The notes beneath the pieces are model-generated. The model was not told where the DNA came from. It did no database searches and saw only the letters and a program-made list of their open reading frames with translations. Below, one piece after another: positions 3,343-34,837 of a DNA stretch of 64,000 nt. Positions within the stretch are counted from its first letter, which is position 1. The number at the start of each line of letters is the position of its first letter. Source of the DNA: Amphibalanus amphitrite (Eukaryota); contig NW_024881729.1 in assembly GCF_019059575.1 (NCBI RefSeq), positions 544,406 to 608,405 of the forward strand, read 5' to 3'. Position numbers and translations under genes: made by a program.

Positions 3343-3551
3343 GTGGGTCTAGATTGTAGAGAGTGAGCGAGGGAGGGCGTGGGTACCGGAGGACAGAGCA
3401 GTACTGAGGTCGTCAGGTAGTTAGAGGGAAGGGAAAGAAGAGAACGAGAGGGAAACACTACACGTCGCGAATGTTAATGATATCGCACATCGGCATGTTT
3501 TGCCTGATGATTCTTCATTAGTTGACATAATCCGTGTTTGTCTGTTTACAG

Positions 3552-6500: not shown

Positions 6501-7033
6501 GTCGACTCTCCGCCCAGAGTCGCTCCCGAGTCAGTCCGGCGGCCGGCGTGACTCCCTGAGTCAGCCCACCTCCAGACATGAACCGGGCCTCGGTCATCTG
6601 TCGCGCGACCTCGGCTCGGCGTCGTCACGTCACGATCTACTCGGTCACGCCGTGTCGCGTCACGATTCGGCCGCCTCCCGGACCGACCCCCTGGCCCAGC
6701 TGAGTCAGGCGGCTGGCCGCGCGCAGCCTCACTACCCTGGTGTGTCGGCTGGGTCGGCGGGCCGCCGCAGCTCGCTGCCTCGTCAGGACTCGGCCCCAAC
6801 CGGCGGTCAGTCGGGACTGTATGCGGCCGGGGAGCCGGCGAGAGATGTGCTCAGTGCAGCGCTGAGTGCGGCGCTCGGCGGCCGGCCGGCTGCTCCGGCA
6901 GCGGCGCGGCCGGCACCGCAGCAGCCGCAGCAGCGACGGATCGTGGACAGCTCCCCGTCCCCAGCCGCGCCAGAGAGGAGTAGTGCGGCAGCGAGTGCTG
7001 CTCAGCGGATGCCTTCGTACTACACTGCGGACG
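3552..7033 (+). CDS. Pro/Ala/Ser-rich protein, giant exon 2 (about 1160 codons)
   Basis: TTTACAG acceptor at 3551. The 1180-aa frame is uninterrupted and ends at the GAC G|GTGAGT donor at 7034. It contains poly-Pro/Ala tracts and an 11-aa repeat array. Confidence 0.65.
5784..6440 (+). repeat. About 20 tandem in-frame 33-nt (11-aa) repeats, PSPRQ(E/D)xH(F/L)(S/N)Q, within exon 2
   Basis: Directly visible periodic translation: SQPSPRQEPHF, NQPSPRQEPHF ... NHPSPRQDHHL. Confidence 0.9.
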
Positions 7034-7341
7034 GTGAGTTGGCCCGCTGGAGTGTCAGACGAGGGAGGGCAATGACATAAACACGTCAACACATTGCTTC
7101 GGTCACGGTCATGAGACATGTGGCAGGCGCATATCTCCCGCTCCATGCTTTGGAGATAGGTTGTTATTTCAATGCGACGAGCCTTGCTACATGACATTTT
7201 TGAACCAATATGCTGCACTTAAGACGCTTTTTGTCTATGGTTCTCACTGATCGGCTTTCTTACTCCGTATACGCTCGACGATAGCGGCCAATCTAACGTC
7301 CTCCGTCTTCCCACCTGACGTTACCCGTCTCTCCTCCGCAG

Positions 7342-9226: not shown

Positions 9227-9431
9227 TCAGGGCGTCACCAGCTGGTCGTGGCTGCGCTGGTGGAACACGAACAGTACCCCGGCGTCCCAGGCGGCCCTCA
9301 GCAGCGGGTCAGGCACGCGCCGGCGGCCGGCGGCGGCCGCGTGGTGCCACTGCGACAGGTCGCCGTTACAGGTGGCGTCGTCGGGCGGGGGTCGGAACTG
9401 GGTGCCGTTCACGCAACGGGTGCACTTCAGC
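9227..9431 (-). CDS. RAD54L: RAD54-like, terminal exon (LKCTRCVNGTQFRPPPDD..AAWDAGVLFVFHQRSHDQLVTP*)
   Basis: C-terminal Cys-containing tail conserved with RAD54. GTTGCAG acceptor; TGA at 9227-9229. All 13 exons sum to 2271 nt (756 aa) with consistent phases. Confidence 0.8.
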
Positions 9432-9898
9432 CTGCAACGGGACGGGGACGGTCAGTCGGCCGTGAAGCGATGATTTGTGCATGGCTAGAGGAAGCAGAGT
9501 AGCGGCAAATATAGATAAGACTGCTGATACTATACTCTGTTCCGTTTCAAGCTTGCAGCCGAAGTGTCCTGCTGAAAGCAGTGCGTGAATTCCGTATATA
9601 ACTACAGCTCTTACATTTCAAGACGAAATTCTTGAGCGGAGGAGCGATCTGCCGAAGAAACTCCGACCGCAAGCTTGAGTTGGAACAGACTATAGGCCCA
9701 CAACTGGAATGCAGCCATCACAGCTGAAATATTCACCGATGACTTACGGCAAAGCCTGAAACATGATTTCATGACAGCCGGACCTTCGATTTGTGAAAGT
9801 CTCACGAACGCTGTAATCCCAGCCTGGATAGCCCACGGCCGTCCGTGACCTATGCCATGTGCATCAGGAGTCCGGACCGACCGTCACCTCTCGCTCAC

Positions 9899-10059
9899 CT
9901 GTCGTGCGTATCACAGATGGTGTCCTCGCGTTTGAAGAGCTCCTTCAGCTCCGCCACGCTGAACAGTCTCTGTACGTCTTCCTCGTTATCAACGACACAC
10001 GAGCTGAGCGCCTTCTTGTGCGTCTGACGCTGGAACATCTTCTCCTCGATGGTGCCCGC
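9899..10059 (-). CDS. RAD54L: RAD54-like, exon 12 ([30 protein letters not shown])
   Basis: TGTCAG acceptor; AG|GTGAGC donor, phase 2. Confidence 0.8.
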
Positions 10060-10326
10060 CTGACAGCAGTAACGATTGAGGTCCGTCAGATCGAGAAAGT
10101 CATGTTGAGGTTGGGGAAAATGCTACAGGGGCTGCATGTCGAACCACTTTACCATGATGCCGCATACGACAATGACTATGAGTATTGATTTACGCCGTCC
10201 CAGGTGGATCAGTTTATGTACTACCGAAGCAAATACGCCTGGACTTAATTAAACATCGGCGCTCGACATGCAACACAGGAAAATGCAGCCTGTTATGGAC
10301 ACATTGAACGTCGGCTCTATGCTCAC

Positions 10327-10533
10327 CGCCAGCAGTCTGTAGACGAAGCAGGGCTTCTTCTGTCCGTCTCTCCAGACGCGCGCCATGGCCTGGTCGTCGT
10401 TGGCCGGGTTCCAGTCGGGGTCGAACATCACCAGGCGGTTGGCGCCGATCAGGTTCAGCCCACAGCCGCCCGCCTTGCTGCTCAGCATGAAGATAAACTC
10501 GGGAGACGAGGGGTCGTTAAACCGGTCCACTAT
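10327..10533 (-). CDS. RAD54L: RAD54-like, exon 11 ([46 protein letters not shown])
   Basis: SNF2 motifs V and VI, near-identical to RAD54. TTTCCAG acceptor; GCG|GTGAGC donor. Confidence 0.9.
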
Positions 10534-10785
10534 CTGGAAACGGGCAGAGCGGGATTGGCGGTCGTGGGGAGGAAGCCGGAAAATTGGTAAAATATATTAT
10601 CGAACTAACCAAGAGAGTGCAAAGATCAATGATAATTATTGGACCTTAGGGCGTTTCGCCAGTTGCCCTATGCTCCAACACCGACAGTAGCGTCAAAACC
10701 CAGTCATATAGCTTGTGTGGCGATACCACCAACACAAACGACCTCAAACAAATATGTATCTAACCCTTGTGGGGCGATCGCCCAC

Positions 10786-10984
10786 CTTGGCGCGTTTTTT
10801 GATGGTCATGCTGCCGTCGAGCCGGACGAAGCAGTAGCTGCGCATCTGGCAGAGGGTCTCGAACAGGTCGAGTGTCTGCGTGTAGTTGGAGACGAGCACC
10901 ACCTTGTCGCTGGTCTGCGTCTTCACCAGGGCCAGCAGGTAGTCCAGCACCGACACCTTGCCGGAGAGCTCCGGACGGACGCGT
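10786..10984 (-). CDS. RAD54L: RAD54-like, exon 10 ([44 protein letters not shown])
   Basis: Helicase C-terminal domain, motif IV region. CACTAG acceptor; AAG|GTGGGC donor. Confidence 0.85.
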
Positions 10985-11526
10985 CTAGTGGACACAGGGA
11001 GGGGGTATTAGACACATCAGAAGACACAGACACCCTGCCGGACAACTCCGGACGGACTCGCCTGGAGGACAGGGGCGGGTAGATATTAGAGGACAAAGAC
11101 ACCCTGCCGGACAGGTCCGGACGGACTCTCCTGGAGGACAGGGGCGGGTAGATATTGACACAGACACCCAGCTGCCGGACAGCTCCGGACGGACTCGTCT
11201 GGCGGACAGGCGGGTGCGGACTGCGGAATTTCAGATACGAGTGGACGCGGACACGCCTGGTGGACACAGGAGGGGAGAATGATATACTGTGGTGGTGTTT
11301 GCAGGTTAGTCATTCAGTTGCTTCACGGGATGCCCCTACTTTGTAACCTATACGGACCTTGCTAGTTTCCGACAGCCTCTAATATCGCGAGTCCGTCTGG
11401 GCAGGACTGTCATCCCTGACAAACTCACGGAGTATCTGTCTGAGTTCGTCTTGACTCTCTAACTCACTCTGTCGAGTGTCCGTCTGACTGTCTGAGTTAG
11501 CTCTGCCTCCCGAGTCCCCGACTCAC

Positions 11527-11677
11527 TTTGTCGAGTGTCCGTCTGGATAGAGCTGCAGCAGATGGCGCAGCTCACTGCCCGGCTCAGTGACCTTCTCGTA
11601 GATCAGGTCCGGGTGGTTGCACAGCTTCTTCAGACTGGTGATGGCGGACAGCGCCGACTGAGTCGATTTGCCGTGAC
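11527..11677 (-). CDS. RAD54L: RAD54-like, exon 9 (SALSAITSLKKLCNHPDLIYEK..)
   Basis: Conserved SITSLKKLCNHP block. CGCCAG acceptor; AA|GTGAGT donor. Confidence 0.8.
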
Positions 11678-12106
11678 CTGGCGGTGCAGAAAAGTGAAAT
11701 GATAGGCTAGAATCGCTACCAGCCCGCGCCATTTAATCCACTCCACATTCTTAGGCATAGGTAACGATTTTTGCTGAACTGGAGGTGGCCAAGCTCTCCC
11801 AATTCAACTCCGGCTTGACTTTTTGAGCCATAACAGACGGTGCGGGTCAAGGTCACTGCTAGGGTCGCGGAGGATCTGTAGTGTACGGGCACCCGCAACT
11901 CAGCAGAAATCGACACTTATGTTTATAAGCATTCGCGACTCGCGGTGGTAGTCAGTTTTAGTTTCAGACAAGCACTGACCCTCGTATTATCTAAATAATA
12001 GAGCTAAGTAAGTCCATACATCAGTGTCAATCGACGCAGAAGTCACGCCCAAATCACGACTCTCTCCCCGCGCATCGTTATCTGCATCTCAGCACCCTGT
12101 ACGTAC

Positions 12107-12267
12107 CGCTGCCCTTCTGTCCCATCAGACTCCGACGCACGGCGTCCGAGCGTATAAAGGCGTCATAGAGCGCCAGTTGGCAGTCGGTGAGACGACAGGA
12201 CACCACCAGCTCCTGTTTCACCGGCAGGTACTTGGAGAGAATCGCTGCCGTGCGGCGGATGATACAC
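12107..12267 (-). CDS. RAD54L: RAD54-like, exon 8 ([28 protein letters not shown]..)
   Basis: CCCTCAG acceptor; G|GTACGT donor, phase 1. Confidence 0.8.
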
Positions 12268-12666
12268 CTGAGGGCAGCGACAGTTGCATGTCAGTCATGG
12301 TGAAAACGCTTCACTGATAGAGAAAATAAACCGGAAAATGGCTGATTGGTCGTTTGATGATTGACGGTTGATCCGATGTCAATGATCGTCGGGAAAATTG
12401 GGTAGATGCTCGAAGAGCGCCTTTTTGCTATCAGTCAACGAAATGAGCATAATACAACCCCAAAAGCCAAGCAGCTTCTGTAATTAGGATTCGATCCCAG
12501 ATATTTGTGTCAAGATGGTAAGATTACTGTGTCATAGCTACCATAACAGATGCAGAGAACTCATTTGATTTCTTTGAATAAGAATGCCTATCCTTTGAAA
12601 ACTGCTCGTAAGCCACCCCACCTAAAATATCCTTTCCTCTACCGACCGCCTCCCAGTCTCGCCCAC

Positions 12667-12803
12667 CTGTTGACGATAGACAGCAGCTCCTGGAGGCGCT
12701 CGTTGCCCTTCTTATGCTCGTCATCGGTGGCGTCAGCATCACGACCCCGCAGGATCGGCGTCTCGAACTTACGCTTAAACTCGCTCGCAGTGCCCAGAAT
12801 GCC
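12667..12803 (-). CDS. RAD54L: RAD54-like, exon 7 ([34 protein letters not shown])
   Basis: CCACAG acceptor; AG|GTGGGC donor, phase 2. Confidence 0.8.
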
Positions 12804-13053
12804 CTGTGGAGGGACGAAGAGGGTCGAGAGAGGTCGCTGTGAAAGGCTCCAACATGCGAGTGAGAATTGGAGATATCACCAGCCATATGCCGCGTCGGTC
12901 AGCCGTACTATGCTGTCGCCACTATGGTCGCCACACCCACTCACTGTCGCATTATGTTATCGCCGTTTGTTTATCGGGGTTTCGCCAAACCAAGAGCCAT
13001 CTGCTGCTCGTGACACATCAAGTGCAATATGCTGTCGCCACACCCAGCCTTAC

Positions 13054-13194
13054 CTCATTGACGAAGTGCACCAGACTGAAGTACTCGAGCAGATCGTTCT
13101 GGATGGGTGTGCCGGAGAGCAGGACACGCCGTCGGCAGTTGAGACTCATCAGTGCCGAGTACGTCTGGTTCTCGTGGTTTTTCAGACGGTGACC
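13054..13194 (-). CDS. RAD54L: RAD54-like, exon 6 ([37 protein letters not shown])
   Basis: SNF2 motifs II and III. AATAG acceptor; GAG|GTAAGG donor. Confidence 0.85.
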
Positions 13195-13445
13195 CTATTG
13201 TCAGGGAAGGGAGGAAGACACTGATCAGGCCATCATCCATCGATGTAAGACGATAAAATAAATTTGACATTTGCCACTACTACAAGAGCACCAGCCCTCT
13301 CACTAACCCACTCGACATCCCAATCTGACAATCACCAAATATCTCACCACCGTTCTCACTCCATTACAGAGTCCCAGCTCTTGCACCGACTCTCACATCC
13401 TGCCATCGACCCCTAGTCTCGCCAGTCCTCTCATCACCCTCTCAC

Positions 13446-13664
13446 CTCGTCACAGAGCACGAGTCCGATCTCTCCGCGGTGCAGCAGCGCCGCGTGGATG
13501 CGGAACGTCTCGTAGGAGATGATGAGGATGGGGTTGACGGGCCGGCGGCCGGTGCGCGTCATGAACCCCTCGAGCTGTCGGACCACCTCCGTCCGTCCGC
13601 CGCCGTCCATCGCCAGCGCCGAGACCCGGCCCGACAGCCACTTGCTGATCTCGTTGTACCAGTT
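13446..13664 (-). CDS. RAD54L: RAD54-like, exon 5 (NWYNEISKWL..ILIISYETFR..LVLCDE)
   Basis: Conserved RAD54 block ending in the DE of the DEGH box. CACCAG acceptor; GAG|GTGAGA donor. Confidence 0.85.
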
Positions 13665-13936
13665 CTGGTGGAAAACGCGGGCATAGAAAGACATCGTAAG
13701 GACATATTATGATAGGTGCAAAAACGTAATCACAACAGACTGGCATCACATTTGATACAGACGAGTCGCAAATGAAAAATGACCTGAGTTGGGCTTTCTA
13801 TAGCAAACTGACCGAAGCTCTGTTATAGGCAGAACATCTTCGAAAAGAACTAGGAACAGCCGATGAAAATCGTCACTAGCTATCTACCGGTACGTAATGC
13901 AGCATCTCGCGAGATCCACGTCGCCCTGCCACCGAC

Positions 13937-14131
13937 CTTGACCAGGCTGCTGGGTGTGACGACAATGCAGCGATCGATCTCGGGCCGGCAGTCGGGACTC
14001 TGTCGCAGCAGTGTCCACATGAGGGTGATGCACTGCAGCGTCTTGCCCAGACCCATCTCGTCGCCCATGATGCAGCCGAAGCTGCCCTCGATCCGGCGCC
14101 CGGTCACGCAGTCGTACATGAACTTGACGCC
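13937..14131 (-). CDS. RAD54L: RAD54-like, exon 4 (helicase motif I: [24 protein letters not shown])
   Basis: SNF2 ATP-binding motif almost identical to RAD54. CTCCAG acceptor; AAG|GTCGGT donor. Confidence 0.85.
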
Positions 14132-14387
14132 CTGGAGGAGACGGACAGGTGAACGTGATGCCGCGGGGATTGTTGTGAGCAGTAGGGCACGGCGATGAGC
14201 AGAAACAGATCATGCAGACAAATCCTATCATGGACAAAAGCTGACTCATGCTTTGTCACCGACGAACAGGCGGACAAACTTTATACGACCCCTAATAATT
14301 CCAGCCCTGTGAGGGATTGGGACGTAACGTACTTCCTTACAAAACCGACTCTGGGAGAGGGGGAGGAGAGAAGACAGGGCGACTCAC

Positions 14388-14457
14388 CTCCCGCTGATGG
14401 GGCCGCAGCACATTACTTAGCGCCGGATCCACCACCACGTGTACCAGCTGCTTGTCA
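14388..14457 (-). CDS. RAD54L: RAD54-like, exon 3 (DKQLVHVVVDPALSNVLRPHQRE)
   Basis: TTTCAG acceptor and GTGAGT donor. The phase joins to exon 2. Confidence 0.75.
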
Positions 14458-14772
14458 CTGAAACAGGGGGCGGGCACGCACAATTCAGCAGCAGAGTTCA
14501 GCAGTGCACATTCGGAAAAATTGCAAAACTCCAAAATGCTATCGTAAAAAAACTGGAATGAAATGATTGTATAAAAAAAGAGACAGGAAGGGTATGTGTA
14601 ACTGAATCAACGAGGTCAAAACGAGTGATTGCCCCATCACTCCAAAAGTGACTCAGGCAGAGTTAAGTACGAGTCAGCCATCAACATTCTCTTTTGAATA
14701 GGAGCTCATGACCCAGACTAGTTTCCCCTTTCCGGCTTCCCCAGCCCCGACCTCTCCCTCCCCATCACTGAC

Positions 14773-14972
14773 GCCTGCATGGTGAGCTGCTCGTGTTGGC
14801 TGAGCTGCGGCGGACTGTAGAGCACCAGCGCGCCCGGCTCGTCGGGGTCGTGCAGCGGCTGACGCGCACCCGTGCGCCGCACCCCCAGTCGGCGGTCCGC
14901 CAGTCGCGCGCCGTTGTAACTCGGGATCGGGATCTTGAACGGTCGAGACAGGATCTGACGCAGACGGGCCTC
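14773..14972 (-). CDS. RAD54L: RAD54-like, exon 2 (ILSRPFKIPIPSYNG..LHDPDEPGALVLY)
   Basis: Strong similarity to the RAD54 N-terminal region. CTCCAG acceptor; GC|GTCAGT donor, phase 2. Confidence 0.75.
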
Positions 14973-15296
14973 CTGGAGACAGAGTGGGAACATTGAGCAG
15001 TGAGAGGGCGATGTGGGGTGTCTCACCCGTCCGTTGGGACAGGATGGGTGTGTACCTTTACAGACGTCCATGCAGCAAACCGTAGCTACGGTGTGCTGCC
15101 GTGTGCTACGCGTAGCTTTGGTCCGGCGGCGCTAAACATCGCGTCCGGGACCAGTCGCCGACTCACATACGGAGAAGGGCCCGGTGGACGATTCAGATAA
15201 TCGGTGACTCACCGTGTCCCAGACACGTCAAGCAAGCGACTGACGTTTAATTAACATACGGGTTTAGTGTGTTACGGTTCCGCGAGGGCGACTCAC

Positions 15297-15521
15297 ATAG
15301 TCAGAGACGGGTCCGGTGGGCGACGCGCCGAGCGGCACGTTAATGGGCTGCAGCGGGGAGCGGACCACGGCGGCGCCATCCTCTTCCAGCGCCGGCTGCT
15401 TCCTGCCAGATGCCCGGGAGCAGGACTCGTCCGAGCGCCGCTTCAGCGCCGAGAACTGACTCGGCGCCAGACTCCGACGCTGCAGAGAGCGGGCATCGGT
15501 GTCAGCTAATACATGAAGCAT
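15297..15521 (-). CDS. RAD54L: RAD54-like, exon 1 (..RRSLAPSQFSALKRR..; true start may lie at 15521, 15554 or in an upstream exon)
   Basis: The RRSLAPSQ N-terminus is conserved with vertebrate RAD54. The GTGAGT donor (plus-strand actcac) is at 15291-15296. Confidence 0.6.
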
Positions 15522-16834
15522 AACTAAAAATGACCCTACTCTGGTATTGACCATGATTTGAATGTATATATTGCATGAGCACAGGCCACAACAGCTGTGG
15601 GGCTGATGGACTCTCTAAATTCTGAAAGACAAAAGGCTTTTGAAAGCCACACATGAAAAAGCATTTGCCATTCTCACATGCTAATATTATGAGCATGGAC
15701 TATGGAGCTGGCATTACCATCACCTGCAGTTAAAATTGATGTTATATGCATGCTTACAATCTAAGCATCACTCATTGATCCCCATCAAACAATAAATCTA
15801 GGCAGCTTTTATGATAAACAAGGTAACCTGAGAACATTCAAGGTGGTGAACATGCCTAATACAATAGTAGCAGGACAAGTAATTTTATTTACAAGAAGAA
15901 ACTTACCATTTCTAAGTGAATATATCAAGTAGCAACTGGTGCAAAATACAGAAGTTCTAGTGTATCTAACACAGCAATTTGAATTCTTTCTTCCTCTTAC
16001 ATTAATCTTATCCATTCAATTATTGCACCTCAGCTTGACATCCTCTAAGAATGAAATGCCACAAGTTATCTGCAAATGCAATTAAAATAATGCCTTAGTC
16101 TTGCACACATGAAAATGTGCAGCATTTAGAAGAAAGCAGATAATCATAAAAAGATAATAAGCACCCAACAAATGGCTGGATCATGACTGGGTCACATAAA
16201 AGCAAATAGAAATACCTAGCTTTACTTTATAAACTTTTAGCACTTTTTTGGGACAGAACCAAAGCAAAAGGGCACCAAGAATTAAGTAAAAAAAAAACCT
16301 GTGACATTGGAACAAACACAGTGTCAATATCAATCAATATTTGGTCATCACAAGTCAAAACTGTTGAGCCCCATGATTGTGATTGAGTGTTATCACCTGG
16401 CTATCTGTATCAGGCCATCTGTTTATTTCTTTCAGCATATATACTTAATACTGCACAAAGGTCGACCTTTGTCTCTTAGATCCTTGGATCCTCTTAGATC
16501 TCTTAGATCAAGATCCCTTGTCAAACTTAGATCCTGTTATCTAAGTTGAAATGCCTACTCTCCCTTGACTAATGCACTGATCAATTTGGGATGATTGGAT
16601 TGTAATTTAATAATGCTAATCAAATTCATTCATTTTGAAAAATGTGATGCAACTAGGGCTTATCTTATGATCTTATCCAAACAACGCGGCTATTTGCCTT
16701 GTCTTGGTCTCGAGATAGGAATAGGTATAGGTATAGGTTCAGTGGACTAGGATTAGACGATGGTCTATTTGATGTCCACATCGGTCATGGGTGGAGGCAA
16801 TTACTCAGGAATGGTTGATTGTCATGATCATATG

Positions 16835-17117
16835 CAGGGCTGCGGAGTCGGAGTCGGAGTCGGAGTCGGTCGGAGTCGACAGTTGTGACCAGAGTCGGAG
16901 TCGGAGTCGGAGTCGATTTTAGAAACCCGAGCCGGAGTCGGAGTCACCGAAAATCTGTCGACTCCGCAGCCCTGCTAGGTCTGCAGAGTCGGAGTTGGGA
17001 GTTGGAGTCGGTCGGAGTTGACAATTCTGCCCGGAGTCGGAGTCGGAGTCGGAGCTGGTTTTTGAAAGCCGGAGTCGGAGTCGGAGTCGCCGAAAATCCA
17101 TCGACTCCGCAGCCCTG
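16835..17117. mobile_element. Two adjacent palindromic MITE-like units (16835-16974 and 16981-17117) of the same family, (GGAGTC)n arrays between CAGGGCTGCGGAGTCG TIRs
   Basis: Unit 1 starts CAGGGCTGCGGAGTCGGAGTCGG and ends CGACTCCGCAGCCCTG. Unit 2 is a near-duplicate. Confidence 0.55.
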
Positions 17118-17998
17118 ATCATATGTCATCACAGAAACAGCTTAAAGCCTTTGCTGAAGGTACTAGGCACATAAATAACATAGCACAATAACAATAATAT
17201 AAGAAAGGATACAGATCAATAACTATATCAATATAGTGCATTTATTATCAACAAATTACACAATTGCAAATATCAAAATGTGTGTGTTGTGTGCGCATCC
17301 TCAGCGGGAAAATTTATACGACCATGGCGCATTAGTTTAGAAATCGCGCCAATCACGATAATATAAGCCTTTGTAAATGACGTATTACTTAAAAGTTATT
17401 TCTTTGGAAAGTTAAAAATCATGGAATAGATATGCTTTGCTTTGCTTATTTTGCCAAAAAGAGCTTGGTTTATGATATCTTATGCTTAATTGTTTAAAAA
17501 ACGTTGAAATGGCAAAGGTAGCAAGGCAAATGAGATGTTTAAGGATCAGCATGCATTTTTTTAAAACTGTTATCAATTTAAGCCTGCCTACAGTTTTAAA
17601 TTTTTCTTAAGAAGTCAAATATTTTAGTCAGCTTTAAATCAACTTTATCGTTTATATAGCCTCGATGCTGTTTACACAGTCTTGTACCAAACTCTATGTG
17701 ACGTCATATCAGATCAAAACAAGATCGAGCCTATGACGTCATATTTATTCTGTAGTTTATTTGGAACACTGCATTGTATTCGGCCCTGAGCGCTCACACA
17801 TTTTTTGTCTTTTCAAAGAGAGAAAAAAGAGTGGGAGGGGACGTACTAGACACTGCCGGATATTTATATTTTCCATTAAATATGCATAATGCATTAATGG
17901 TGTTTTCCCTCATTTCGTCTTTGTTTTCTTCGACGAAATAACGATGACGACGGAGGCTGACTGCTGAGGCGTCCTACACTCGCTCTGCGGCTGGTGAG

Positions 17999-18093
17999 TA
18001 GATATCAGTTGGGCAAACTAGGCGGCGGGAATCAAAATATGGAGGCATCAAAATATTGATTCTAGTGGGCGGAGCTTTGACCATATATGGGCA
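17999..18093 (+). repeat. 95-bp perfect inverted repeat, left copy; partner at 21508-21602; contains the palindromic 18-mer GAATCAAAATATTGATTC
   Basis: ATATCAGTTGGGCAAACTAGGCGGCGGGAATCAAAATATGGAGGCATCAAAATATTGATTCTAGTGGGCGGAGCTTTGACCATATATGGGCATA recurs as its reverse complement 3.5 kb downstream. Further GAATCAATATTTTGATTC-like motifs lie at 18240-18360. Confidence 0.85.
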
Positions 18094-18539
18094 TACGTGC
18101 AGACCATCACAGAAACGTCAATTCTTCAGCAACCGGCTATAATTTCAAGATAGTTTCTTCACAAAATGTAGAACAACGTTGAAGCTACCCGCCAGGCACG
18201 AAACAATAGCCCTAACCTCTTCGGTTAGTTTAGGAAAGCGTCTTGAAAATAATCAAGATATTGATTCATCACGGCGGCTAATCCCGGCGAGAATCAATAT
18301 TTTGATTCCGCAAACAGCTGGCTAATCATTATTTTGATTCTGAAATCAGCTGGTTTATCAATATATTGATTCTGCGAACTGACTTTCTGCAGACGTACTT
18401 CACTCTTCAAATTGACTTATGGAATGTTTCTTGTGTGCAAATAATGCAAATTCAATAAATTCATGAAGATATTATCAGCACAGGATCGTGTAATTTTTTC
18501 TAGACCTTATTCCCACGGTAGACCAGGGATTTTCAGCAC

Positions 18540-18739
18540 TCACCCTAGCTCCCTGCTCAAAGCTGCAAGCCTTCGAGGGAATGCGTCAAGGGAGCCGTGC
18601 TGACCTTTGTATAGGGGTTGTACTGAGTCGGAGCCGGAACCGAAGCCCGACCATTTTACTCGGAGCCGGAGCCGGAGCTGGAGCCGATTTTTCCTCCGGA
18701 GCCGAAGCCGTCTAACATTTTCACGACTCCACATCCCTG
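18540..18739 (-). repeat. Inverted partial copy of the GGCTCC-array element (compare 392-565)
   Basis: The reverse complement begins GCAGGGATGTGGAGTCG..(GGCTCC)n..GAGTAAAATGGTCGGGCTTCGG..TACTCAGTACAACCCCTATACAA. Confidence 0.6.
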
Positions 18740-21507
18740 CTTTGTAGCATTGATTTTGAGTAAAAAAAAGTTCACTTATCGTCTTTCACGTGTTCATGAA
18801 TGTGTTTCTACGCATCTGTATCCCGTCCCATTTCTGTGGAGTACAGTAAGAGATATTTCGCCGAACAATATACTCCTCAAGCCCGTTGCACAAATTGCAC
18901 AATTTGAATGAAAATATGATACACGGATGTATTTGCAGTCGCAAATAATACGATGATATTCATAACACATTTCACAACGATCCCTGCAATTGCCACACAT
19001 TTGCCATCACAAAGCCCTGTCGTTGATGCTCACATCCCATGCAAAGCAATACTCACTTTTAGGACACGTCTCTTATTCAATATGGCTACGTATTTGCAAA
19101 ACATGCAGTTAATAATATTTAAAACTGAGACCTAACCAATAAGACATACCGTGGACAGGTAAGAAAAAACAAATAAACTTCTGGAGAATGACTTCAACGT
19201 CTCGATGTTGCCTAATTACAAAGAGCAATTTCCGGTTTCGAATCAAATACATGAAATAAATATAAACAAAATTTGTACAGATACACTCAATATAGGGTTT
19301 ATGATTAGCACGGCTACCTAACACATCAATCCTGTCAGGTTGAGCCACTTATGTCCACACCCAAAGCAGGTCGCTTTGGAACATCACAAGATTCCATATT
19401 ACCACCGAAAACGGTCACCAATTGGTCTACGGATCAGCATCTTCAGAACATTCTCGACCGAAAAACTATCAGTCCTGCCTGTGTTTTGGTTCGCTTCATT
19501 TGGGCTATGCACACGTTTTTCTACTCCGGTTCTAGGGACGAGATAGCAGTCATCACGCGCTGCACCAGCTCGTTCTTTGACAGGTTGGTGACGCTGTCGT
19601 CATCCGGCAGGATAAACACGTGGCGCATTTCACCCTCGGCCCCGCCAGCCACATACACACTTCCTCACGTCATATTGTTTCTCGCCACGAGATCAAAGTT
19701 CAAAAAGTCGTGATGTAGGTAGTCTCCACCCAGCCCGAGTCAGGTACTCCACCGGTTGGTCGGGTGCGGCCAGGTCCGCGCAACGCCGCCCTACTTCGGT
19801 CGACGCTCTGGTTGACAGGGATGGCGTTGTCATACAGTTGCCTGTCGACTGAACAGCGATTCAAGACGCCATCCTTGACCCTCTGAAGCCAATCCCCGCA
19901 ACGACCAGTGTTTGATCATTGGTTGACCTGCAGCAAACAACAGAACACAATAATTAGGACATTTGTGGACAATAAATTAGGAAACTATATGTGTTATTAT
20001 TCTACTTGTTCAGCAACTATTAATTTTAGAATATATTCAATAAAAAATTAATTAAAAAATTAAATAATGTCACTTAAATTTCCACTGAACGCCACCAGGT
20101 GCGCCAACAACTGTCATCTCATGCAGTTATATAAATTCTGCCAAAAAAGTATATCTGAGGCCAGTTGTACCAACAGAAAAATAGGTGGCTGCTGGATTTT
20201 TTTTTTGTCTAAAAGTTACTTCACATACAGAGCATGAACGGTACAGCCTTATCCGTTTACGTGCCCATCATGTTAACGCTCCATATGTGAAGCAGTCTTT
20301 GGGCAAAAAAATTCCAGCAGGCAGCTATTTGTGTCGATAAAACTGGCCTCTATAATTAACTTTGGCATGGACAATCCTGAAAATTAACTATCCAGCATTC
20401 CCTGGACTGACATACATTAGACGCATAATTTTCTTGAAGACTACGCATAATGTAAATATGGCTTACACCATTCAGCAACTTGCTTTTGTTACACTTAAAA
20501 TAAGCATCATTAAATATGTAGCAAAAATGGGCGAAGCAATTACAAGCCAAGCATACATACCTACTATTTAAATAAGGCAAACACCAACATGCACTAAGAC
20601 CTTTCAATCTTAAATCGGAACAAGTCAATAACCTAGTTGCCCTTAAAAAATTTAAATGCTACAAATTAAAGTTGTAGCAACAATTGGGTGAGTGAGACAC
20701 AAGCAGAGGCTAAAACATCCAAATTATGTAAAATACTGGACATGCACTGCCCCCATTTCATGAGTCCACCCAACAATTCTATCATGTGAGACAAAACATC
20801 AGGCTTCTTGTAACTAATTTATACCGTAACTTTTAAAGGACATCATATTTCACTGAAATACTACACCTAAGACATCATTTTCGAAAAAATATAGCTTAAA
20901 AAGACAATAGAAGAGTGAGAAGGCGTCCCGCGCCGCTGATGTCGCTACCGCGCCATGTTCCTAAAACCATCTCTTAAAACGAGTTTTTGGTAAGAAACGT
21001 TAAGATCACATGCCTGAAATTGAAAAACACACTTCAAAGTATCTTAAAATATGATCCATTGTTACTTACACTTCAGAAAAGGTCGCTTAAACAAAATAAA
21101 ACCGGGAGCACTACGTTGCATCCAAACACCCACGACGCCGGCGCGAAATGGCGGGAACCGGAAATCGTGGCTAGATACAAAGAAAAAGAATATTTCTTAT
21201 AAATGAATTATACAACTAAATAACGCATTTTTCATTTTCTTTTAGACAAAATTATGAAAAAAATACAAAGGCTCGTCGTTAATGATAAACAGAGCAAGTT
21301 TTAACAGCACGTTTTTGTTGAATTATGGCGGCGAAATCTTTATGCCATTCGTAAAGGTACGCGCGACAAACGGCTGATAGCCATGCAGCGAAAAATTGAA
21401 GCGGGGAAGTTTTTTGTGTTGACTTGTCAAAAAATCTCGCCGTCATGGGGGTTTTTTCCGCCGTAACGGGTCGTCTGAAGGTGGGAATGTCCCAAATTGA
21501 ATCAAAA

Positions 21508-21602
21508 TATTGATTCTATGCCCATATATGGTCAAAGCTCCGCCCACTAGAATCAATATTTTGATGCCTCCATATTTTGATTCCCGCCGCCTAGTTTGCC
21601 CA
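21508..21602 (-). repeat. 95-bp inverted repeat, right copy
   Basis: Perfect reverse complement of 17999-18093. Confidence 0.85.
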
Positions 21603-21779
21603 ACTGATATGGCGATTGGCGTCTATTTCAATTTTGATTTTAACCAATGACATTTTCAGTGTTAAGTGTGAATTGATAATTGTGGGCACACACTATTAAA
21701 TGTGAAGATGAAGTCCAAGTAGATAAAAATCTAACGACTGGTCAGAGGTGCTGACGTATCCTAGCATTTTCGGTACCTA

Positions 21780-24700
21780 TCGGTAAAGCTGGCGTCACCG
21801 TCGGCGGTAGGTAGGTAGGTTATGTTGTGGGTTCAGTAGGTGGAACTATGGTCATGAGTACCCAAATATAGGAACGTTCCCATTTTTGGGAACGGAGTTC
21901 CCAAATATGGGAACGGGCGTTCCCATTTATGAGAACGGAAGTTAATTTTTCGGCCGTTCGCCCACTAAAACTCATTAGTGCATCACGTCTCAAAAAAGTG
22001 CACGCTAATTTAAGTATCTACTAAGTCGATTCCAGGACAAATCTTCGTATGGCATTTCTTCGTCGCGCAATTCTTCGTCCGCATTTCTTCGTCCGCAAAT
22101 CTTCGTCGGCGCATTTATTCGTGTCGCATAACTTCGTCTCGCATTTCTTAGTAAGCGCAAATATTCGTAGCGCATTTTTTCGTATCCGCATTTCTTCGTA
22201 CGCGCATTTCTTCGTCAAGCATTTTTTCGTCCACGCATTTCTTCGTCTACGCAAATCTTCGTCCGCATTTCTTCGTCCACGCAAATCTTCGTCTGCGCAT
22301 ATCTTCGTCCGCAAATCTTCGTCCCCGCAAATCTTCGTCCGCAAATCTTCGTCCACATTTTTTCGTCCACGCATTTCTTCGTCTACGCAAATCTTCGTCC
22401 GCATTTCTTCGTCCACGCAAATCTTCGTCCCGGCAAATCTTCGTCCGCAAATCTTCGTCCGCAAAACTTCGTCCGCAAATCTTCGTCTGCAAATCTTCGT
22501 CCGCATTTTTCGTCCACGCATTTCTTCGTCCACGCAAATCTTCGTCCGCAAATCTTTGTCTGCGCATATTTTCGTCCGCAAACCTTTGTCTCCGCTATCT
22601 TCGTCTCCGCAAACATTCGTCCACAAATGTGGTTCAATAAAACCATGAAGAAATATCAGACCATCAAGTGATTGACGAATTTAATGCATGGAATGGATGA
22701 TCGAAACTTTTGAAGTCAGGTAGATGAGGTCTGTCAGGTGAAGCTATTGTATTTGGGAGCCGAGAATTGAAACATTCCATATCATTTGTGTCCCGGACAT
22801 TCTTTTTTCGCGGTCGATGAATGACAATACAATCTCTTGTACCCTCGCCGGCATAGGCGGCGGAACGGGGAGGGCACCGGGGCACCGTTCCCCTCTTTAA
22901 TTTGGCCTTTTAACAGTAGCCCTATGGGCGTTGCATGGAAAGAATGGGACTAAAAGTCGGCAGTGCCAAGCCCCCCCCCCCCCCTAATTGAATGTGTTCC
23001 GCCGCTACTGCTCGCCGGACCTATTTGTTTTCTACATATACGCCGGCCGAGGGGGGGGGGGCGGGCACGACCCCCCCCCCCTTCCCCCCATCGCCGTTTC
23101 GCCACTGGTGGAGCTAGCGCGTCGCGGAAAAAAACGAGCGTGTGCGCCGTTACGAGACGCAGAGATTAATACCCGATTTTAAGGCCTTCTAGGTCAGGGG
23201 TCGGCTTACGGCCCGCGGGCCGGATCCGGCCAGGAGGGTGACGGTTCGATCCGGCCCGCGACCATCTGACGTCCGGCCCGCGGCTGGTATCATCGACTTA
23301 CATCGTGTTCCGGCCCGCGGTTCCTTCAGAAATCGACTCCGATATAAAAGTGACTTAAATGTGCTTTGGCACAATAGTTCTTCCTTCGCACACTTCATGA
23401 GTTTATAAACACCATTTGCGGGTGTTTTTGTCTAATTCTACTTCTAGACAAAACTTGCGCGGGCCGGACGTCAGATGGTCGCGGGCCGGATCCAACCGTC
23501 ACCCTCCTGGCCGGATCCGGCCCGCGGGCTGTAAGCCGACCCCTGACCTAGAAGGCCTTAAAATCGGGTATTAACCTCTGCGTCTCGTAACGGCGCACAC
23601 GCTCGTTTTTTCCGCGACGCGCTAGCTCCACCAGTGGCGAAACGGCGATGGGGGGGGGGGGGGTCGTACCCGCCCCCCTCGGCCGGCGTATATGTAGAAA
23701 ACAAATAGGTCCGGCGAGCAGTAGCGGCGGAACACATTCAATTAGGGGGGGGGGGGGCACGGCACTGCCGACTTTTAGTCCCATTCTTTCCATGCAACGC
23801 CCATAGGGCTACTGTTAAAAGGCCAAAATTAAAGAGGGGAACGGTGCCCCGGTGCCCTCCCCGTTCCGCCGCCTATGCCGGCGAGGGTACAAGAGATTGT
23901 ATTGTCATTCATCGACCGCGAAAAAAGAATGTCCGGGACACATGATATGGAATGTTTCAATTCTCGGCTCCCAAATACAATAGCTTCACCGGACAGACCC
24001 CATCTACCTGACTTCAAAAGTTTCGATCATCCATTCCATGCATTAAATTCGTCAATCACTTGATGGTCTGATATTTCTTCATGGTTTTATTGAACCACAT
24101 TTGTGGACGAATGTTTGCGGAGACGAAGATAGCGGAGACAAAGGTTTGCGGACGAAAATATGCGCAGACAAAGATTTGCGGACGAAGATTTGCGTGGACG
24201 AAGAAATGCGTGGACGAAAAATGCGGACGAAGATTTGCGGACGAAGATTTGCGGACGAAGTTTGGCGGACGAAGATTTGCGGACGAAGATTTGCCGGGAC
24301 GAAGATTTGCTGGACGAAGAAATGCGGACGAAGATTTGCGTAGACGAAGAAATGCGTGGACGAAAAAATGCGGACGAAGATTTGCGGACGAAGATTTGCG
24401 GGGACGAAGATTTGCGGACGAAGATATGCGCAGACGAAGATTTGCGTGGACGAAGAAATGCGGACGAAGATTTGCGTAGACGAAGAAATGCGTGGACGAA
24501 AAAATGCTTGACGAAGAAATGCGCGTACGAAGAAATGCGGATACGAAAAAATGCGCTACGAATATTTGCGCTTACGAAGAAATGCGAGACGAAGTTATGC
24601 GACACGAATAAATGCGCCGACGAAGATTTGCGGACGAAGAAATGCGGACGAGGAATTGCGCGACGAAGAATTGCCATACGAAGATTTGTCCGGTTACGTA

Positions 24701-26600
24701 CTAAGTCTCTATAAAATTATCTTTAATCTGACCGTTGCACAAGGAAATTGACCGTCGAATGATATTTTTAATGATTTTTTGAAATGACGGAATGGTGAAA
24801 ACATGGGTTATACTACATTTAACTTGCAATTTTAAGGAAAATGAAGCGTTTTTTACATTTTGAGGTCAAGTACAATAATTTTCGCCTGGTTATGAAGTTT
24901 CATACTAGCGACACCAGATGCTGACATATGCAAGCGAACACGCGGACAGTCCCGAGGTAATATTGTTGACTTTTGGTGTCGGGGCGCACGACCGCGTGGA
25001 ACGTCAGTGATTTTACCGAACTACTGTTGTAAACTCGGTTTCAGTGGTTTAAAATTATTCAGCTGTATTTTATCATCCCGGAAAGACATATTTTATTTGG
25101 ATGCTAGCTGTTAAAGGGACCCTCCCACCTTTAAAAAAGTTTATGAATTGGCATGAAAGTGATGTCGCTCGGTTCAGAAAGAGCGAAAACGAATATCTAC
25201 CAAATTTCACCGAAAAATATTCACCGGTTTTGAAGATATTAGACTTTTACTTTTGTTTACTTTTTGGGATCTCCGCTGTTCCTAGCGACTTTATTTAAAA
25301 GTGCGGCATTTGTTGCGCGCAACGCAGCATATACCACCGCGTGCTACAAAACGTTTTAGTCAAACATTTAACGGACGTTCGAAAGCCTGATGACGTCATC
25401 AGATTTAAGTGCCTATACCAATACATTGTGGCACTTATTTGCACAGATGTCAAAATCAAACTCAAATTTCTTTGCGATGAAGTAATTGCTGGAGAAACGG
25501 TTTTCACGGCACTGATTTTCAAAGAACGTCCATCAAGATGGCTATCTCAACTCAAATCTAATGTTAAGGTGGGACAGTCCCTTTAAGCGTTGTTTTATAA
25601 GGAGCGTCATGAGCGTGATTTTTGTCTTCCGTGTTTCTAAGCACGATCGTTTTGGGGGAATTTCTCTTATATAGGTCGCTTTGTGTGGCTTATTTATAAT
25701 TTTTATGCTGATCTCGATCATTCCTCGTGCCCATCCTACCAGGCCTTTTGCCACTTACACCCATCAAGAAAGGAAAAAACTAGATTTTCATTGGGACTAG
25801 GTGTTTTGAGGGTGTAACATATTCAGCGTTCCCATTTTTGGATACTTCCTTGTGCTCGTCAACTATCGGTGATAAACAGACAGGTGCTTGACATGTCTCC
25901 ACCCTCGGCGCGGACGGTGGATATAGGTATGGAAGACCTTGTTGAACATCGCTGAGCGTTGTGAACTACGTAATCCTGCAGAGGGGGGCGTGCCCGCTGC
26001 GAGATCGACGGGAATAAAAGCGCAGAAGACCGGGCGTAACATGCGACGGTCTTGCCGGAAAGGTCATCTGATGATTGTTGCGTTAACAATAATTTGCGGC
26101 GTTGGACGTGATGCTTGTTAATGAAAAGAGCCCCTGAAAGGCGTCGGTGAAATCGTTCCCAATTTTGGGTACGCCGTTCCCATAATAAGGAACGCTTGCA
26201 GCGCCAGTGTACGAGAGCGTTCCCAAATTTGGGCTCGCGGCCCGGATGATGGACTGCTTTAGAAATAGGGGAACGATTTGAAACTACGATGGGCCTTACA
26301 ATATCAAACTCTTTCCCAACAATATTGGGACAAATATCAGGCGGTTCACGATCGTTTTTTTTTTTTTTTGGACGTCATTTAACGGTTCTTTTTCTTGTTT
26401 TAAATAATGCCTACATGGCGTTCCCATATTTGGGTTTATCGTTCCCAAACATGGGAACGAAAATGCGTTCCCGAAAATGGGTACGCTTGACCATAGTTCC
26501 GCCTACTGGGTTTGTAGGTTGTAGGCTGGTTGGTTCAAAGTGTGTAGGCTGGTAGGTTGTAGGTAAGTAGGTAAGGCTAGGTCAGGTTAGATTATGTGTT
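21780..26600. mobile_element. Candidate larger element enclosing the foldback. Long inverted termini (about 21795-21960 versus 26400-26560) are built from palindromic GTTCCCAnnnnTGGGAAC motifs and carry (GTAGGT)n at the outer ends
   Basis: Left GGGTTCAGTAGGTGGAACTATGGTCATGAGTACCCAAATATAGGAACGTTCCCATTTTTGGGAACG.. matches the reverse complement of right ..CGTTCCCAAACATGGGAACG..GACCATAGTTCCGCCTACTGGGTTTG. More motif copies lie at 25831-25850 and 26140-26235. Confidence 0.4.
22038..24692. mobile_element. Foldback-type element: a 2.65-kb near-perfect palindrome whose arms begin with tandem arrays (about 600 bp) of a degenerate 14-18-bp unit (CTTCGTCCGCAAAT-like), followed by inner unique sequence and a second, smaller palindrome around the centre (about 23190-23560)
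   Basis: The left arm 22038-23390 is the reverse complement of the right arm 23410-24692. The track ORFs 22021..22626 and 24087..24677, and their antisense partners, are simply translations of the arrays. Confidence 0.7.
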
Positions 26601-31864: not shown

Positions 31865-32301
31865 GTGAGAGCGGCGCCGCGCTGGGTCTTGCACTGGCGG
31901 CATGCTCACAAACAGTATTACAGCCATGGTGTGGGATTTTGGAAATTATAACTAGCTTCGCTATGTTTAACCATTCATAAACAATCAAGTACCCTCACAT
32001 ATTTCGCTTAGCTTGTAAAAATAATTTATTTTGACACTTGACAGTGGTCTGGTCCATATCAGCGACAATCTGTGCCTCTCGCTGATATGCCGTGCCCCCC
32101 CCCCCCCCCCCACACGCACCAACAGTCTTCCCCTCGCCCTCACAGGTAGTCGTTCCTCACAAGCACTGGCGTCGCTGGCTGGCCCGTGTGACTGTCTCCC
32201 CGCGTCTGACTATGCTCCCGCTGTCTCTGCAGGCGATCGTTCTGCAGAAGTACTGGCGTCGTTTGTTGGGCTGTGTGTCTCTCCCACAGACAGGCCCCAA
32301 T

Positions 32302-34073
32302 CCGACGACCAAATCCGACACCTCGGGACGAAGAAGGCGCCAGGACCGGACCGGGTATGCACCGAACACCTGCGGCACTTCGGACCGACGGCCTACCGGA
32401 CCCTTCTGGCACTCATCAACAGATCGTGGTCCAACCTCGAGACGCCCGCCTCATGGCGACGGGCGACCATCATCCCTATCTTTAAGGCCGGCAAAGACCC
32501 CAAACAAGTGGGCAGCTACCGCCCGATCGCGCTCACGAGTCACATCGCCAAGCTAGCGGAGCGGATGATCGCGGCCCGGACGACCTACCTCATCGAGCGA
32601 GACCGACTGGTGCCCCCCGAACAGGTCGGGTTCCGCCGCGGGAGGTCGGCGGAGGACAGTCTGGCCCGCTTGGTCCAAACGGTTCAAGATGGCTGGAATC
32701 GCCCCAAGCCGAGACGAGGCCCGGAGGATGGCGTGACGGCGGACCGCTTTGTCCTCCTGGCGTTCGACTTCTCCCGTGCCTATGACACGATCGATCACCG
32801 GATGTTGCACCTGAAGCTCCTCAAGCTCCTCCCCAGATGTCTCGCGACCTGGAAATTCCGGTTCCTTCGCGGCAGGCGGGCCCGCGTAGAGGTCAACGGC
32901 GCGCACAGCAGCGAGCGCGTGTTCCGCGCGGGCCTGCCGCAGGGCTCGGTCCTGGCACCGACCATCTACACGCTCTGGGCGGCGGACCTTATCGAGACCC
33001 TGCGGAACGCCTCGGACCGCACGGACGTCCTGATGTATGCGGACGACAGGGCCACACTGAGCGCTGGAGCCACCGTAGAGCTTGCGGTGGCTCGCGCCCA
33101 GAAGTCGGCCGACGCCCTGGCCCGATGGGCAAGGCACTGGAAGATGTCCATCGCCGGACAGAAGACCCAGGCGCTGCTGCTGACTCAGCGGAGCAGGGAC
33201 GAGCGCGGCGTGCAACTCCTGGCGAACGGCACGCAGGTCACCGGTGGCACCAGCCTACATCTTCTGGGGGTGACCTTCGACAGACTTCTACACTTTAAAG
33301 ACCACTGCGACTCTCTGCTGCGGCGGAAGGTCCGGCCGCGGACGGCACAGCTGCGGAGGATGACCGGCCGGGCCTGGGGTCTCCGCGAGGCGCAGCTCAG
33401 GACAGTCGCGAACGGGTATGTCCGGGGAGCCCTTGAATACGCAGCGGGTGCCTGGCTCCCGGCCGCGTCCCCGTCACACGTTCAGCTGGTGGAGCGCGAG
33501 CTGCTGGCGGCAGCCCGGGTGGTGACCGGATGCCCAAGGTCCACCCCCAGGGATCCCCTGCTGGCCGAGGCTGGCATCCCTTCAGCATGGTCCACCAGGA
33601 AGACGCTGGCCGCGCGAACGCTCTGCCGAGCGCTCGCCCTGCCGGAGGACGACCCTCTTCGCCGCGTCGCGGAGGCCGACCCACCCACTCGACTGCGGTC
33701 TACCACCGGCTGGCGACAACTGGGGCGATCGGCGCTGATCGAGGCGGGCGCCGAGGGAGTGACGGTGGAGCCGCGCCTCGAGGTTCCCCTCCTCCCGTGG
33801 ACAACCTGCCGCCCGATCGCCTTCAATCTGGACGTGGGACCCGGCGGTCGTCGAGCCTCCTCCAACGAGACGCGACGAGAGGCCGCGCGGCAGCACCTGG
33901 CGGCGCTCCCAGCCCAGGCCACGTGGATTTGGTCCGACGGCTCTGCGGACGCTGGGGTCAGGCGAGGCGAGGGGGCGGCGCCATCATCTTTACCGCGTCG
34001 GGGGAGACTCTCGAGGTTGAGGTGGTGGCGGGAGACCTCTGCTCCAGCACCCGTGCGGAGCTGTTCGCCCTGA
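32302..34073 (+). pseudogene. LINE RT-domain reading frame (frameshifted relative to the downstream RNase H/CCHC part at 33957-34801)
   Basis: The two overlapping track ORFs (680 aa and 423 aa) together cover RT, RNase H and the zinc finger. Confidence 0.6.
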
Positions 34074-34837
34074 GGGCGGCGCTGGAGCGGGTCCGGGATG
34101 AGCCGTCCCCCGCCCCGCTGGTGGCGTGCTCTGACTCACGAGCCGCCCTGAGCCTCCTCAGCGCGGGAGCGGCCGCCCAGACCTCCACTTTCGGCGCGGC
34201 GATCTGGAGGACGCTGCTGGACATTGCCGAGCGCCGGCAGGTGACCCTGCAGTGGGTCCCTGCTCACTGCGGGCTGGCGGAGAACGAGCGCGCTGACGCC
34301 CTGGCCAAGCAAGCGGCCACCCTGCCCCAGGGCGCCGTGCCCTCGGACGCTCGGCCCCTGACACGGGCAGTTCATCGGACGACCACACGTCAGTGGCGCG
34401 AAAACTGGCCCGACTCCTTTTTCAAGGCTATCTTCGGGAGCACCCTGCCGCTCCCCATCCCCGGAGAGGACCGAGAGGCCGCCATCTCGGTGCACCAGTG
34501 GAGGGTGGGCCACTGGGGCCGCTCGCTCCAATACCTGCACCGGATCGGCCGCCACCCCTCCGTGGCATGCCTGCAGTGCCCCGATAAGCGGTGCCCCACG
34601 GCGCTCTGCGCCGTGTGCCGGGAAGAGGCGGACGTGCCGGAGCACGTGTTGCTCCGCTGCCCGGCCCTCGCTGGCGCCCGCCTGCGGCTAACTGGCAGCA
34701 TTCACGTCGACCCGTCGCGGCTGCGGGACGCCGACCTGGTGGCTGCCTTGGAGGCCGGCTACCTTCGCCATAGGGAGCCTCTCGGCTATGGTCCTCCGTA
34801 AGGAGGTCCCAGGGGGAACAACAACAACAACAACAAT
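32302..34837 (+). mobile_element. 5'-truncated non-LTR retrotransposon (LINE) with RT, RNase H and a C-terminal CCHC; I/R1/LOA-type domain order; frameshifted
   Basis: RT motifs KAPGPD, FDFSRAYDTIDH and YADD. The RNase H block (TRAELFALRAALE) is in a different frame after a roughly 1-nt indel near 33960-33980. CCHC is CLQCPDKRCP..C..C. A (CAA)6 tail sits at 34819-34836. A 10-bp target-site duplication AGGCCCCAAT lies at 32292-32301 and 34838-34847. Confidence 0.75.

Follow-up and report, generated by a model that had tools for sequence, protein, structure and literature searches.

Structure of the inverted-repeat element E1

The DNA analyzed here is a stretch of 64,000 nucleotides from the barnacle Amphibalanus amphitrite (assembly GCF_019059575.1, contig NW_024881729.1, positions 544,406 to 608,405 of the forward strand), termed the window in the following; positions refer to this stretch unless another locus is named. 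It harbors a RAD54-like gene and, in intergenic DNA approximately 2.1 kb upstream of the latter, a 3.6-kb candidate transposon (designated E1) that is framed by a perfect inverted repeat and followed by a second, older element (designated E2); the features of this region are compiled in Table 1.

Table 1. Positions of E1, E2 and the adjacent RAD54-like gene in the window (TIR, terminal inverted repeat; nt, nucleotides).
Feature	Position	Strand	Remark
Left target-site duplication of E1, ATAT	18002-18005	.	Single ATAT joins the flanks in the empty allele; alternative TA, 18003-18004
Left TIR of E1, 90 bp, begins CAGTTGGGCAAACTAGG	18006-18095	+	100% complementary to 21517-21606; terminus 12/17 identical to that of E2
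Half-site and one full 18-bp near-palindrome (GCATCAAAATATTGATTC) in left TIR	18029-18062	+	First site 24 nt from terminus
Left subterminal array of E1, four 18-bp near-palindromes	18250-18372	.	Starts at 18250, 18291, 18323, 18355
Non-coding interior of E1	18096-21516	.	Encodes no transposase
Diverged copy of (CGGAGY)n-bearing short repeat in E1	18607-18739	.	Relatives at 392-821, 16834-17117
Right subterminal exact 18-mer of E1	21499-21516	+	Abuts inner edge of right TIR
Right TIR of E1, 90 bp, ends ...CCTAGTTTGCCCAACTG	21517-21606	-	
Right target-site duplication of E1, ATAT	21607-21610	.	From empty-allele comparison
E2, older element present in both assemblies	21834-26508 (with flanking repeats 21830-26512)	.	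~220 bp from E1
RAD54-like gene, complete, ~13 short-intron exons	Exons 9242-14972; region 9242-15911	-	Annotated start codon ~2.1 kb from insertion

The initial annotation of the window had described perfect 95-bp inverted repeats 3.5 kb apart. The perfect pair is indeed present, but its arms measure 94 bp each (18002-18095 and 21517-21610; 100% complementary, with 3421 bp between them). The similarity of the arms breaks off sharply at the inner as well as the outer edges; the inner end of an arm is unrelated to its own outer end, and the arm possesses no inverted repeat of its own. As detailed below, the boundaries of the inserted DNA coincide with the ends of the inverted repeat (90-94 bp, depending on the assignment of the outermost bases).

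Both ends of E1 contain copies of the 18-mer GAATCAAAATATTGATTC: With up to three mismatches allowed, 15 strand-matches at nine sites were detected, all in 18029-18372 and 21499-21583 and none elsewhere in the window, for which 0.09 matches are expected by chance. The sites are unequally distributed, with six in the leftmost 370 bp of the element and three in the rightmost 110 bp; the last three of the four left subterminal sites form a tandem array with 32-bp spacing. Exact copies are present just inside the arms (18291-18308 on the minus strand and the right subterminal copy on the plus strand). Each 94-bp arm carries one copy with a single mismatch and one half-site. Nor is the 18-mer perfectly palindromic as stated before: Its reverse complement reads GAATCAATATTTTGATTC, i.e. 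16 of the 18 positions are symmetric, and arms of 7 bp flank an asymmetric AATA. Read on the plus strand, sites 2-7 all retain the same TTGATTC half, the other half being variable. The 18-mer is plausible as a putative site of a DNA-binding protein, a role that fits its restriction to both ends of E1 and the analogous array in the neighboring E2 (see below); its symmetry would suggest binding of a dimer.

The interior of E1 lacks recognizable coding capacity. The longest open reading frame (ORF) comprises 120 residues, in agreement with the earlier notice that no ORF is situated between the repeats; a search of the interior yielded no Pfam match in six frames, no Rfam family and no tRNA. When the 120-residue ORF was compared with 1.84 billion representative proteins (HMMER), no meaningful homologue was obtained (one spurious repetitive match, E=1e-4), and an exact look-up found neither this ORF nor the Pao polyprotein of the window (see below) on record. 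Mos1 and Tc1 transposases had no tblastn match in E1 or in the window. Since it encodes no transposase, E1 is non-autonomous.

The GGCTCC-array element that had been noted between the repeats is real and corresponds to the (CGGAGY)n-bearing short repeat of Table 1. It belongs to a family of short elements of approximately 140 bp, the boundaries of which are formed by GCAGGGCTGCGGAGTCG...CGACTCCGCAGCCCTGC, with (CGGAGT)n occupying the space between; the relative next to E1 consists of two tandem copies, and the copy within E1 is diverged. The interior also contains nested short inverted repeats (20157-20179/20328-20350 and 20200-20239/20272-20311) that may represent a small hairpin-forming insert at 20157-20350.

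The content of the interior bears on the question whether E1 is a composite, in which two inverted solo ends or copies resembling MITEs (transposable elements of the miniature inverted-repeat type) mobilized captured genomic DNA, the interior being cargo rather than the remnant of a deleted transposase region. The absence of a transposase remnant, the presence of a diverged, unrelated short repeat and the general resemblance to ordinary intergenic DNA are in line with this idea. In contrast, the 94-bp arms have no inverted repeat of their own and are therefore not complete MITEs. A composite origin is considered quite improbable; moreover, it would constitute a sub-variant of transposition and not an alternative to it.

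Unoccupied allele and target-site duplication

The window was compared with the RAD54 locus of an independent A. amphitrite assembly (GCA_009805615.1, contig VIIS01000581.1:458457-485138; locus L011), which is colinear with window positions 1-29586 at 98.6-99.95% identity: L011 4311-7911 corresponds to 25212-21606 of the window (99.83%), and L011 7907-18073 corresponds to 18005-7837 (98.6%). L011 is devoid of exactly 3605 bp and runs from window position 18005 directly to 21611; its junction (GTGAGTAGATATGGCGATT; also GGCTGGTGAGTAGATATGGCGATTGG and GCGGCTGGTGAGTAGATATGGCGATTGGCG) consists of the left flank up to 18005 joined to the right flank from 21611, with one ATAT and without any footprint. 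The empty allele accordingly reads GTAGATATGGCG, the occupied allele GTAGATAT-(CAG...CTG)-ATATGGCG. An empty-site allele, which had been suggested as a check in the initial annotation, is therefore present in the species.

The empty site in L011 indicates that E1 is a discrete insertion (a precise loss is much less likely) that segregates in A. amphitrite; its clean state without footprint suggests that E1 had never been present in the L011 haplotype, as opposed to having been excised from it. Since L011 contains a single ATAT, the ATAT at the outer end of both 94-bp arms represents the duplicated target and is not part of the element, contrary to the previous statement that no target-site duplication (TSD) is evident. 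Two readings had been offered for the repeat pair: that of a non-autonomous element with long TIRs is supported, whereas that of an inverted duplication is ruled out by the empty site.

Two explanations without transposition have to be considered for the difference between the assemblies. Firstly, it could be an artefact, with DNA falsely inserted into the window or a region collapsed in GCA_009805615.1; the comparison was indeed made at the assembly level, between two different assemblies the quality of which is not known. The difference, however, extends exactly from TIR to TIR with the 4-bp duplication resolved to the base, and its flanks agree at 99.8% over 3.6 kb and at 98.6% over 10 kb; assembly errors do not create such a pattern, which makes an artefact extremely improbable. 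Secondly, the 3.6-kb segment might be ancestral and non-mobile (e.g. an old inverted duplication) and might have been deleted from the other assembly via GATAT microhomology; the breakpoints share 4-5 bp (GATAT), as is the case in microhomology-mediated deletion, and no second copy of E1 was seen. Both breakpoints of such a deletion would need to coincide exactly with the outermost positions of the perfect 94-bp inverted repeat, and recombination between inverted repeats inverts rather than deletes the DNA; furthermore, the classic transposon anatomy with CAG...CTG termini and end-restricted motif arrays, as well as the adjoining related element E2 with its own TSD, argue against it, so that a deletion is regarded as highly improbable. 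Taken together, the 90-bp TIRs, the presence or absence of 3605 bp with one ATAT, the lack of coding capacity and the arrays restricted to the ends identify E1 with high probability as a single copy of a class II TIR transposon of the cut-and-paste type, which is non-autonomous and polymorphic in A. amphitrite at this site upstream of the RAD54-like gene.

Measured against the unoccupied site, the duplication has a length of 4 bp or else of 2 bp. Due to the palindromic nature of ATAT, three symmetric readings with TSD lengths of 4, 2 and 0 bp are equally compatible with the empty site: In the 4-bp reading the TSD is ATAT and the element CAG...CTG extends over 18006-21606 with TIRs of 90 bp, and in the 2-bp reading the TSD is TA and the element TCAG...CTGA extends over 18005-21607.

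E1 is a fairly recent insertion of an ordinary kind of mobile element. The very recent event that had been deduced from the identity of the arms finds its support chiefly in the presence/absence polymorphism; arm identity is a weak indicator, as zero differences in 90 bp limit the divergence of the E1 arms only to less than approximately 3%.

In the empty allele, the insertion site is positioned 8 nt past a consensus splice-donor-like GGTGAGT and 49 nt before an acceptor-like ...TTTTCAG (17988-18001, 21611-21659). An intron-like unit of approximately 56 nt from GGTGAGT to TTTTCAG was considered and dropped, because no L011 gene model covers the site. Two TGACGTCA palindromes and one TATTTATA are located 130-300 bp upstream.

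The neighboring element E2

E2, likewise a non-autonomous TIR element, is delimited by the termini CAGTAGGTGGAACTATGG and CAGTAGGCGGAACTATGG (jointly written CAGTAGG[T/C]GGAACTATGG) and possesses imperfect TIRs of approximately 95 bp. Immediately outside both termini, GGTT is found as a direct repeat of 4 bp (21830-21833 and 26509-26512; the chance of a 4-bp match at these fixed positions is 1/256), and the junctions exhibit no TA; E2 is therefore not a Tc1/mariner element. Its own 18-bp near-palindrome, GTTCCCAAATATGGGAAC, with cores of the form CC(A/T)6GG, occurs in 11 copies confined to both ends (0.07 expected).

The two elements resemble each other in several respects: Twelve of the first 17 terminal bases of E1 and E2 are identical (binomial p ~1e-4), a similarity that exceeds the match of E1 to any inverted terminal repeat (ITR) of mariner; the first 18-mer starts at nt 24 in E1 and at nt 25 in E2; and in both motifs, arms of 6-7 bp flank an AAATAT core. 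A window-wide scan for palindromes of this kind revealed clusters only at the ends of E1 and E2. A third terminus-like match, at L011:26113, was discarded as a chance match without a motif array. The CC(A/T)6GG (CArG-like) cores in the E1 TIR and the E2 palindromes were also considered as SRF/MADS sites; they are better explained as transposon-end motifs. If E1 is a relative of E2, its structure is CAG...CTG with a 4-bp ATAT duplication, and the unambiguous 4-bp GGTT of E2 would thus favor the 4-bp reading of the E1 target site.

Nested in E2 is a Foldback-like element (22028-24698), present in both assemblies. Its inverted arms are approximately 1.3 kb long and are made up, over their outer 600 bp, of tandemly arrayed copies of a 14/16-nt unit (CTTCGTCCGCAAAT). 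A perfect direct repeat of 9 bp, TACTAAGTC, borders this element on both sides (22019-22027 and 24699-24707). A further 58-bp segment inside E2 (25213-25269) has no counterpart in the other assembly and, with CCG microhomology at the junction, represents a simple indel.

Superfamily placement

Transposases of Ac/hAT, P elements and En/Spm-CACTA recognize their ends via repeats of subterminal motifs. E1 is similar to these in that a short motif recurs within a few hundred bp of its ends, in either orientation and in unequal numbers at the two ends; it differs from hAT and P (8-bp duplications) and from CACTA (3-bp duplications) in its termini and in an empty site that allows no more than 5 bp. 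Duplications of 6 bp or longer being excluded, hAT, P, MULE and Merlin (TSD 7-10 bp) were rejected as candidates. The same applies to piggyBac and Kolobok, which use TTAA (for the Kolobok target see PMC9587614), given the ATAT at the E1 junction, and to Ginger (5'-TG...CA-3' with a 4-6 bp TSD, PMC10741241), given the CAG...CTG termini. Foldback elements, which consist for the most part of long arms made up of tandem subrepeats, were dismissed in view of the 90-bp arms of E1, which enclose 3.4 kb of unique DNA. With MITEs, E1 has in common TIRs and a TSD, the lack of coding capacity and the proposed mobilization in trans. The other hallmark of MITEs is a high copy number; in length they usually stay below approximately 0.5-0.8 kb, in contrast to the 3.6 kb of E1.

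Among the remaining groups, an affiliation of E1 with Sola-like elements or another group with 4-bp TSDs appears somewhat probable. Sola elements are reported to create TSDs of 4 bp; their TIRs measure 11-1124 bp, and their terminal sequences vary greatly (PMC10741241). AWWT has been termed the hallmark of Sola1 (PMC3845634), the duplications of Sola2 are likewise AWWT, ATAT among them (PMC3627910), and non-autonomous Sola derivatives are known in arthropods (PMC3845634). The ATAT duplication of E1 would fit this 4-bp, AT-rich AWWT pattern (PMC3845634, PMC3627910). On the other hand, E1 neither contains a Sola DDD transposase nor has one linked to it, and the published insect Sola1 TIR (GGACCGTTTATTTTG...) is unrelated to CAGTTGGGCAAAC of E1. 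To our knowledge, arrays of 18-bp near-palindromes at the ends are not a described feature of Sola.

A placement of E1 as a polymorphic non-autonomous TIR transposon of the Tc1/mariner superfamily is unlikely. In that case the element would be TCAG...CTGA (18005-21607) with a duplicated TA, and the additional A...T match would reflect an A-TA-T target preference. The L011 empty site is equally compatible with a TA duplication, a TA is present at the exact E1 junction, and the TSD of Tc1/mariner is always TA (PMC10741241); moreover, the terminus TA|TCAGTTGGGCAAACTAG is mariner-like, sharing 9-10 of its first 17 bases with the ITRs of Hsmar1, Mos1 (5'/3') and Himar1 (terminal bases TCAGTTGGGCAAAC versus TTAGGTTGGTGCAAAAG, TCAGGTGTACAAG and ACAGGTTGGCTG; mariner sequences confirmed in PMC5714172, PMC2642840 and PMC2553598), and its anchored gapped alignment with Hsmar1 gave a shuffle p of 0.001-0.004. 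The comparison with these ITRs had, however, been chosen post hoc. Against Tc1/mariner stands E2, which has the closer terminus (12/17) and equal architecture and is flanked by GGTT without a TA. Mariner TIRs comprise approximately 30 bp compared with 90 bp in E1, and subterminal arrays of a separate palindromic motif are not known as a mariner feature. Unlike Tc1/mariner elements, E1 is 3.6 kb in length and non-coding; neither Pfam nor tblastn disclosed a mariner/Tc1 transposase remnant in E1 or the window, and E1 thus shows neither a DD34D/DD34E transposase nor, with its 90-bp TIRs, the short ITRs of mariner. Mariner was initially favored on the terminal resemblance and was demoted after the GGTT duplication of E2 had been recognized.

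Slightly less likely still is that E1 belongs to some other or an undescribed superfamily. In this context we tentatively put forward, as a doubtful proposal, that E1 and E2 are two families of an undescribed cut-and-paste lineage, possibly outside the named superfamilies and, at least in the case of E1, still transposing in barnacle populations; such a lineage would be characterized by 4-bp duplications, TIRs of approximately 90 bp, a CAGTWGG...AACTA terminus and family-specific arrays of 18-bp near-palindromes with an AAATAT core as putative operators of a dimeric transposase.

Several points weigh against the interpretation of E1 as a recent transposon with a 4-bp TSD and a relative in E2. 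The palindromic target site has been mentioned above. E1 was seen as a single copy within the window and the locus, metagenome and viral sets searched, and genomic repetition is a defining property of transposon families: No second copy was found in the window, in the fetched loci L009-L011, in JGI metagenomes (two TIR patterns, nothing retrieved) or in viral contigs (eight lone chance matches to the 18-mer only); when both E1 ends were translated in six frames and compared with 5.8 billion proteins, no match with E<=10 was obtained. Among the first 11 terminal positions, four differ between E1 and E2, which thereby fail the strict criterion of Repbase for co-classifying non-autonomous elements in one superfamily (PMC4455052). 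The GGTT of E2 departs from the AWWT preference of Sola that the ATAT of E1 fits, although two elements are too few to judge a preference; the placement of E1, in Sola or elsewhere, would draw solely on TSD and end structure, no transposase having been found. Binding of a protein to the E1 18-mer is what we infer from its arrangement. Finally, very old polymorphism is held in barnacle populations (3-5% diversity in Balanus glandula; bioRxiv 10.64898/2026.04.27.721231), which qualifies the presence/absence polymorphism as evidence of age.

Proposed mobilization and relevance

According to the transposon interpretation, an autonomous relative located elsewhere in the genome would provide a DDE/DDD transposase in trans. 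This enzyme would recognize the conserved terminus CAGTWGG...AACTA and bind, probably as a dimer, to the 18-bp near-palindromes that E1 carries in its TIRs and subterminally; it would then pair the ends and excise the element, and integration via a 4-nt staggered cut would duplicate ATAT.

Repeats abound in the highly polymorphic genomes of barnacles, yet the transposons among them have hardly been curated, and population-level repeat data have been called for (bioRxiv 10.64898/2026.04.27.721231). E1 provides a base-by-base record of a segregating DNA-transposon insertion in a barnacle; the terminus and the binding-site signature of E1 and E2 could lead to the autonomous partner and possibly to an active crustacean transposase, and the insertion upstream of RAD54 is a possible presence/absence marker. 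Its interest lies mainly in being a clean polymorphic case from a little-studied genome and in forming, with E2, a pair of related families whose palindromic end motifs are family-specific. Beyond that, E1 is an ordinary non-autonomous transposon that leaves the general picture unchanged.

Other features of the window

The protein assembled from the exons of the RAD54-like gene shares 98% identity with A. amphitrite RAD54-like and 90% with its Pollicipes pollicipes counterpart. A plus-strand open frame of 1180 codons (3538-7080) is located in DNA of 60-70% G+C content; its low-complexity, Pro/Ser/Ala-rich translation contains approximately 25 tandem SPRQ[ED]xH[FL]xxx units. Identity between the assemblies drops to ~93% in this region compared with 98.6-99.9% elsewhere, and the annotation of L011 places a gene of 758 residues on the opposite strand.

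On the minus strand, 39405-44963 encodes an intact Pao/BEL retrotransposon polyprotein of 1852 residues. Its closest relatives (57-78% identity) are found on ENA metagenome contigs, the best one in a Tara sample (TARA_SAMEA6022973), which suggests that these metagenomes contain barnacle-like DNA; the nearest named match, from the sponge Sycon, reaches only 36%. Retroelement ORFs for reverse transcriptase and RNase H (32031-34801, plus strand) adjoin an IQUB-like exon (36246-36665); RVT_1 and IQUB are merged in the publicly available annotation of the other assembly into one gene model of 1361 residues, which is probably a chimeric prediction.

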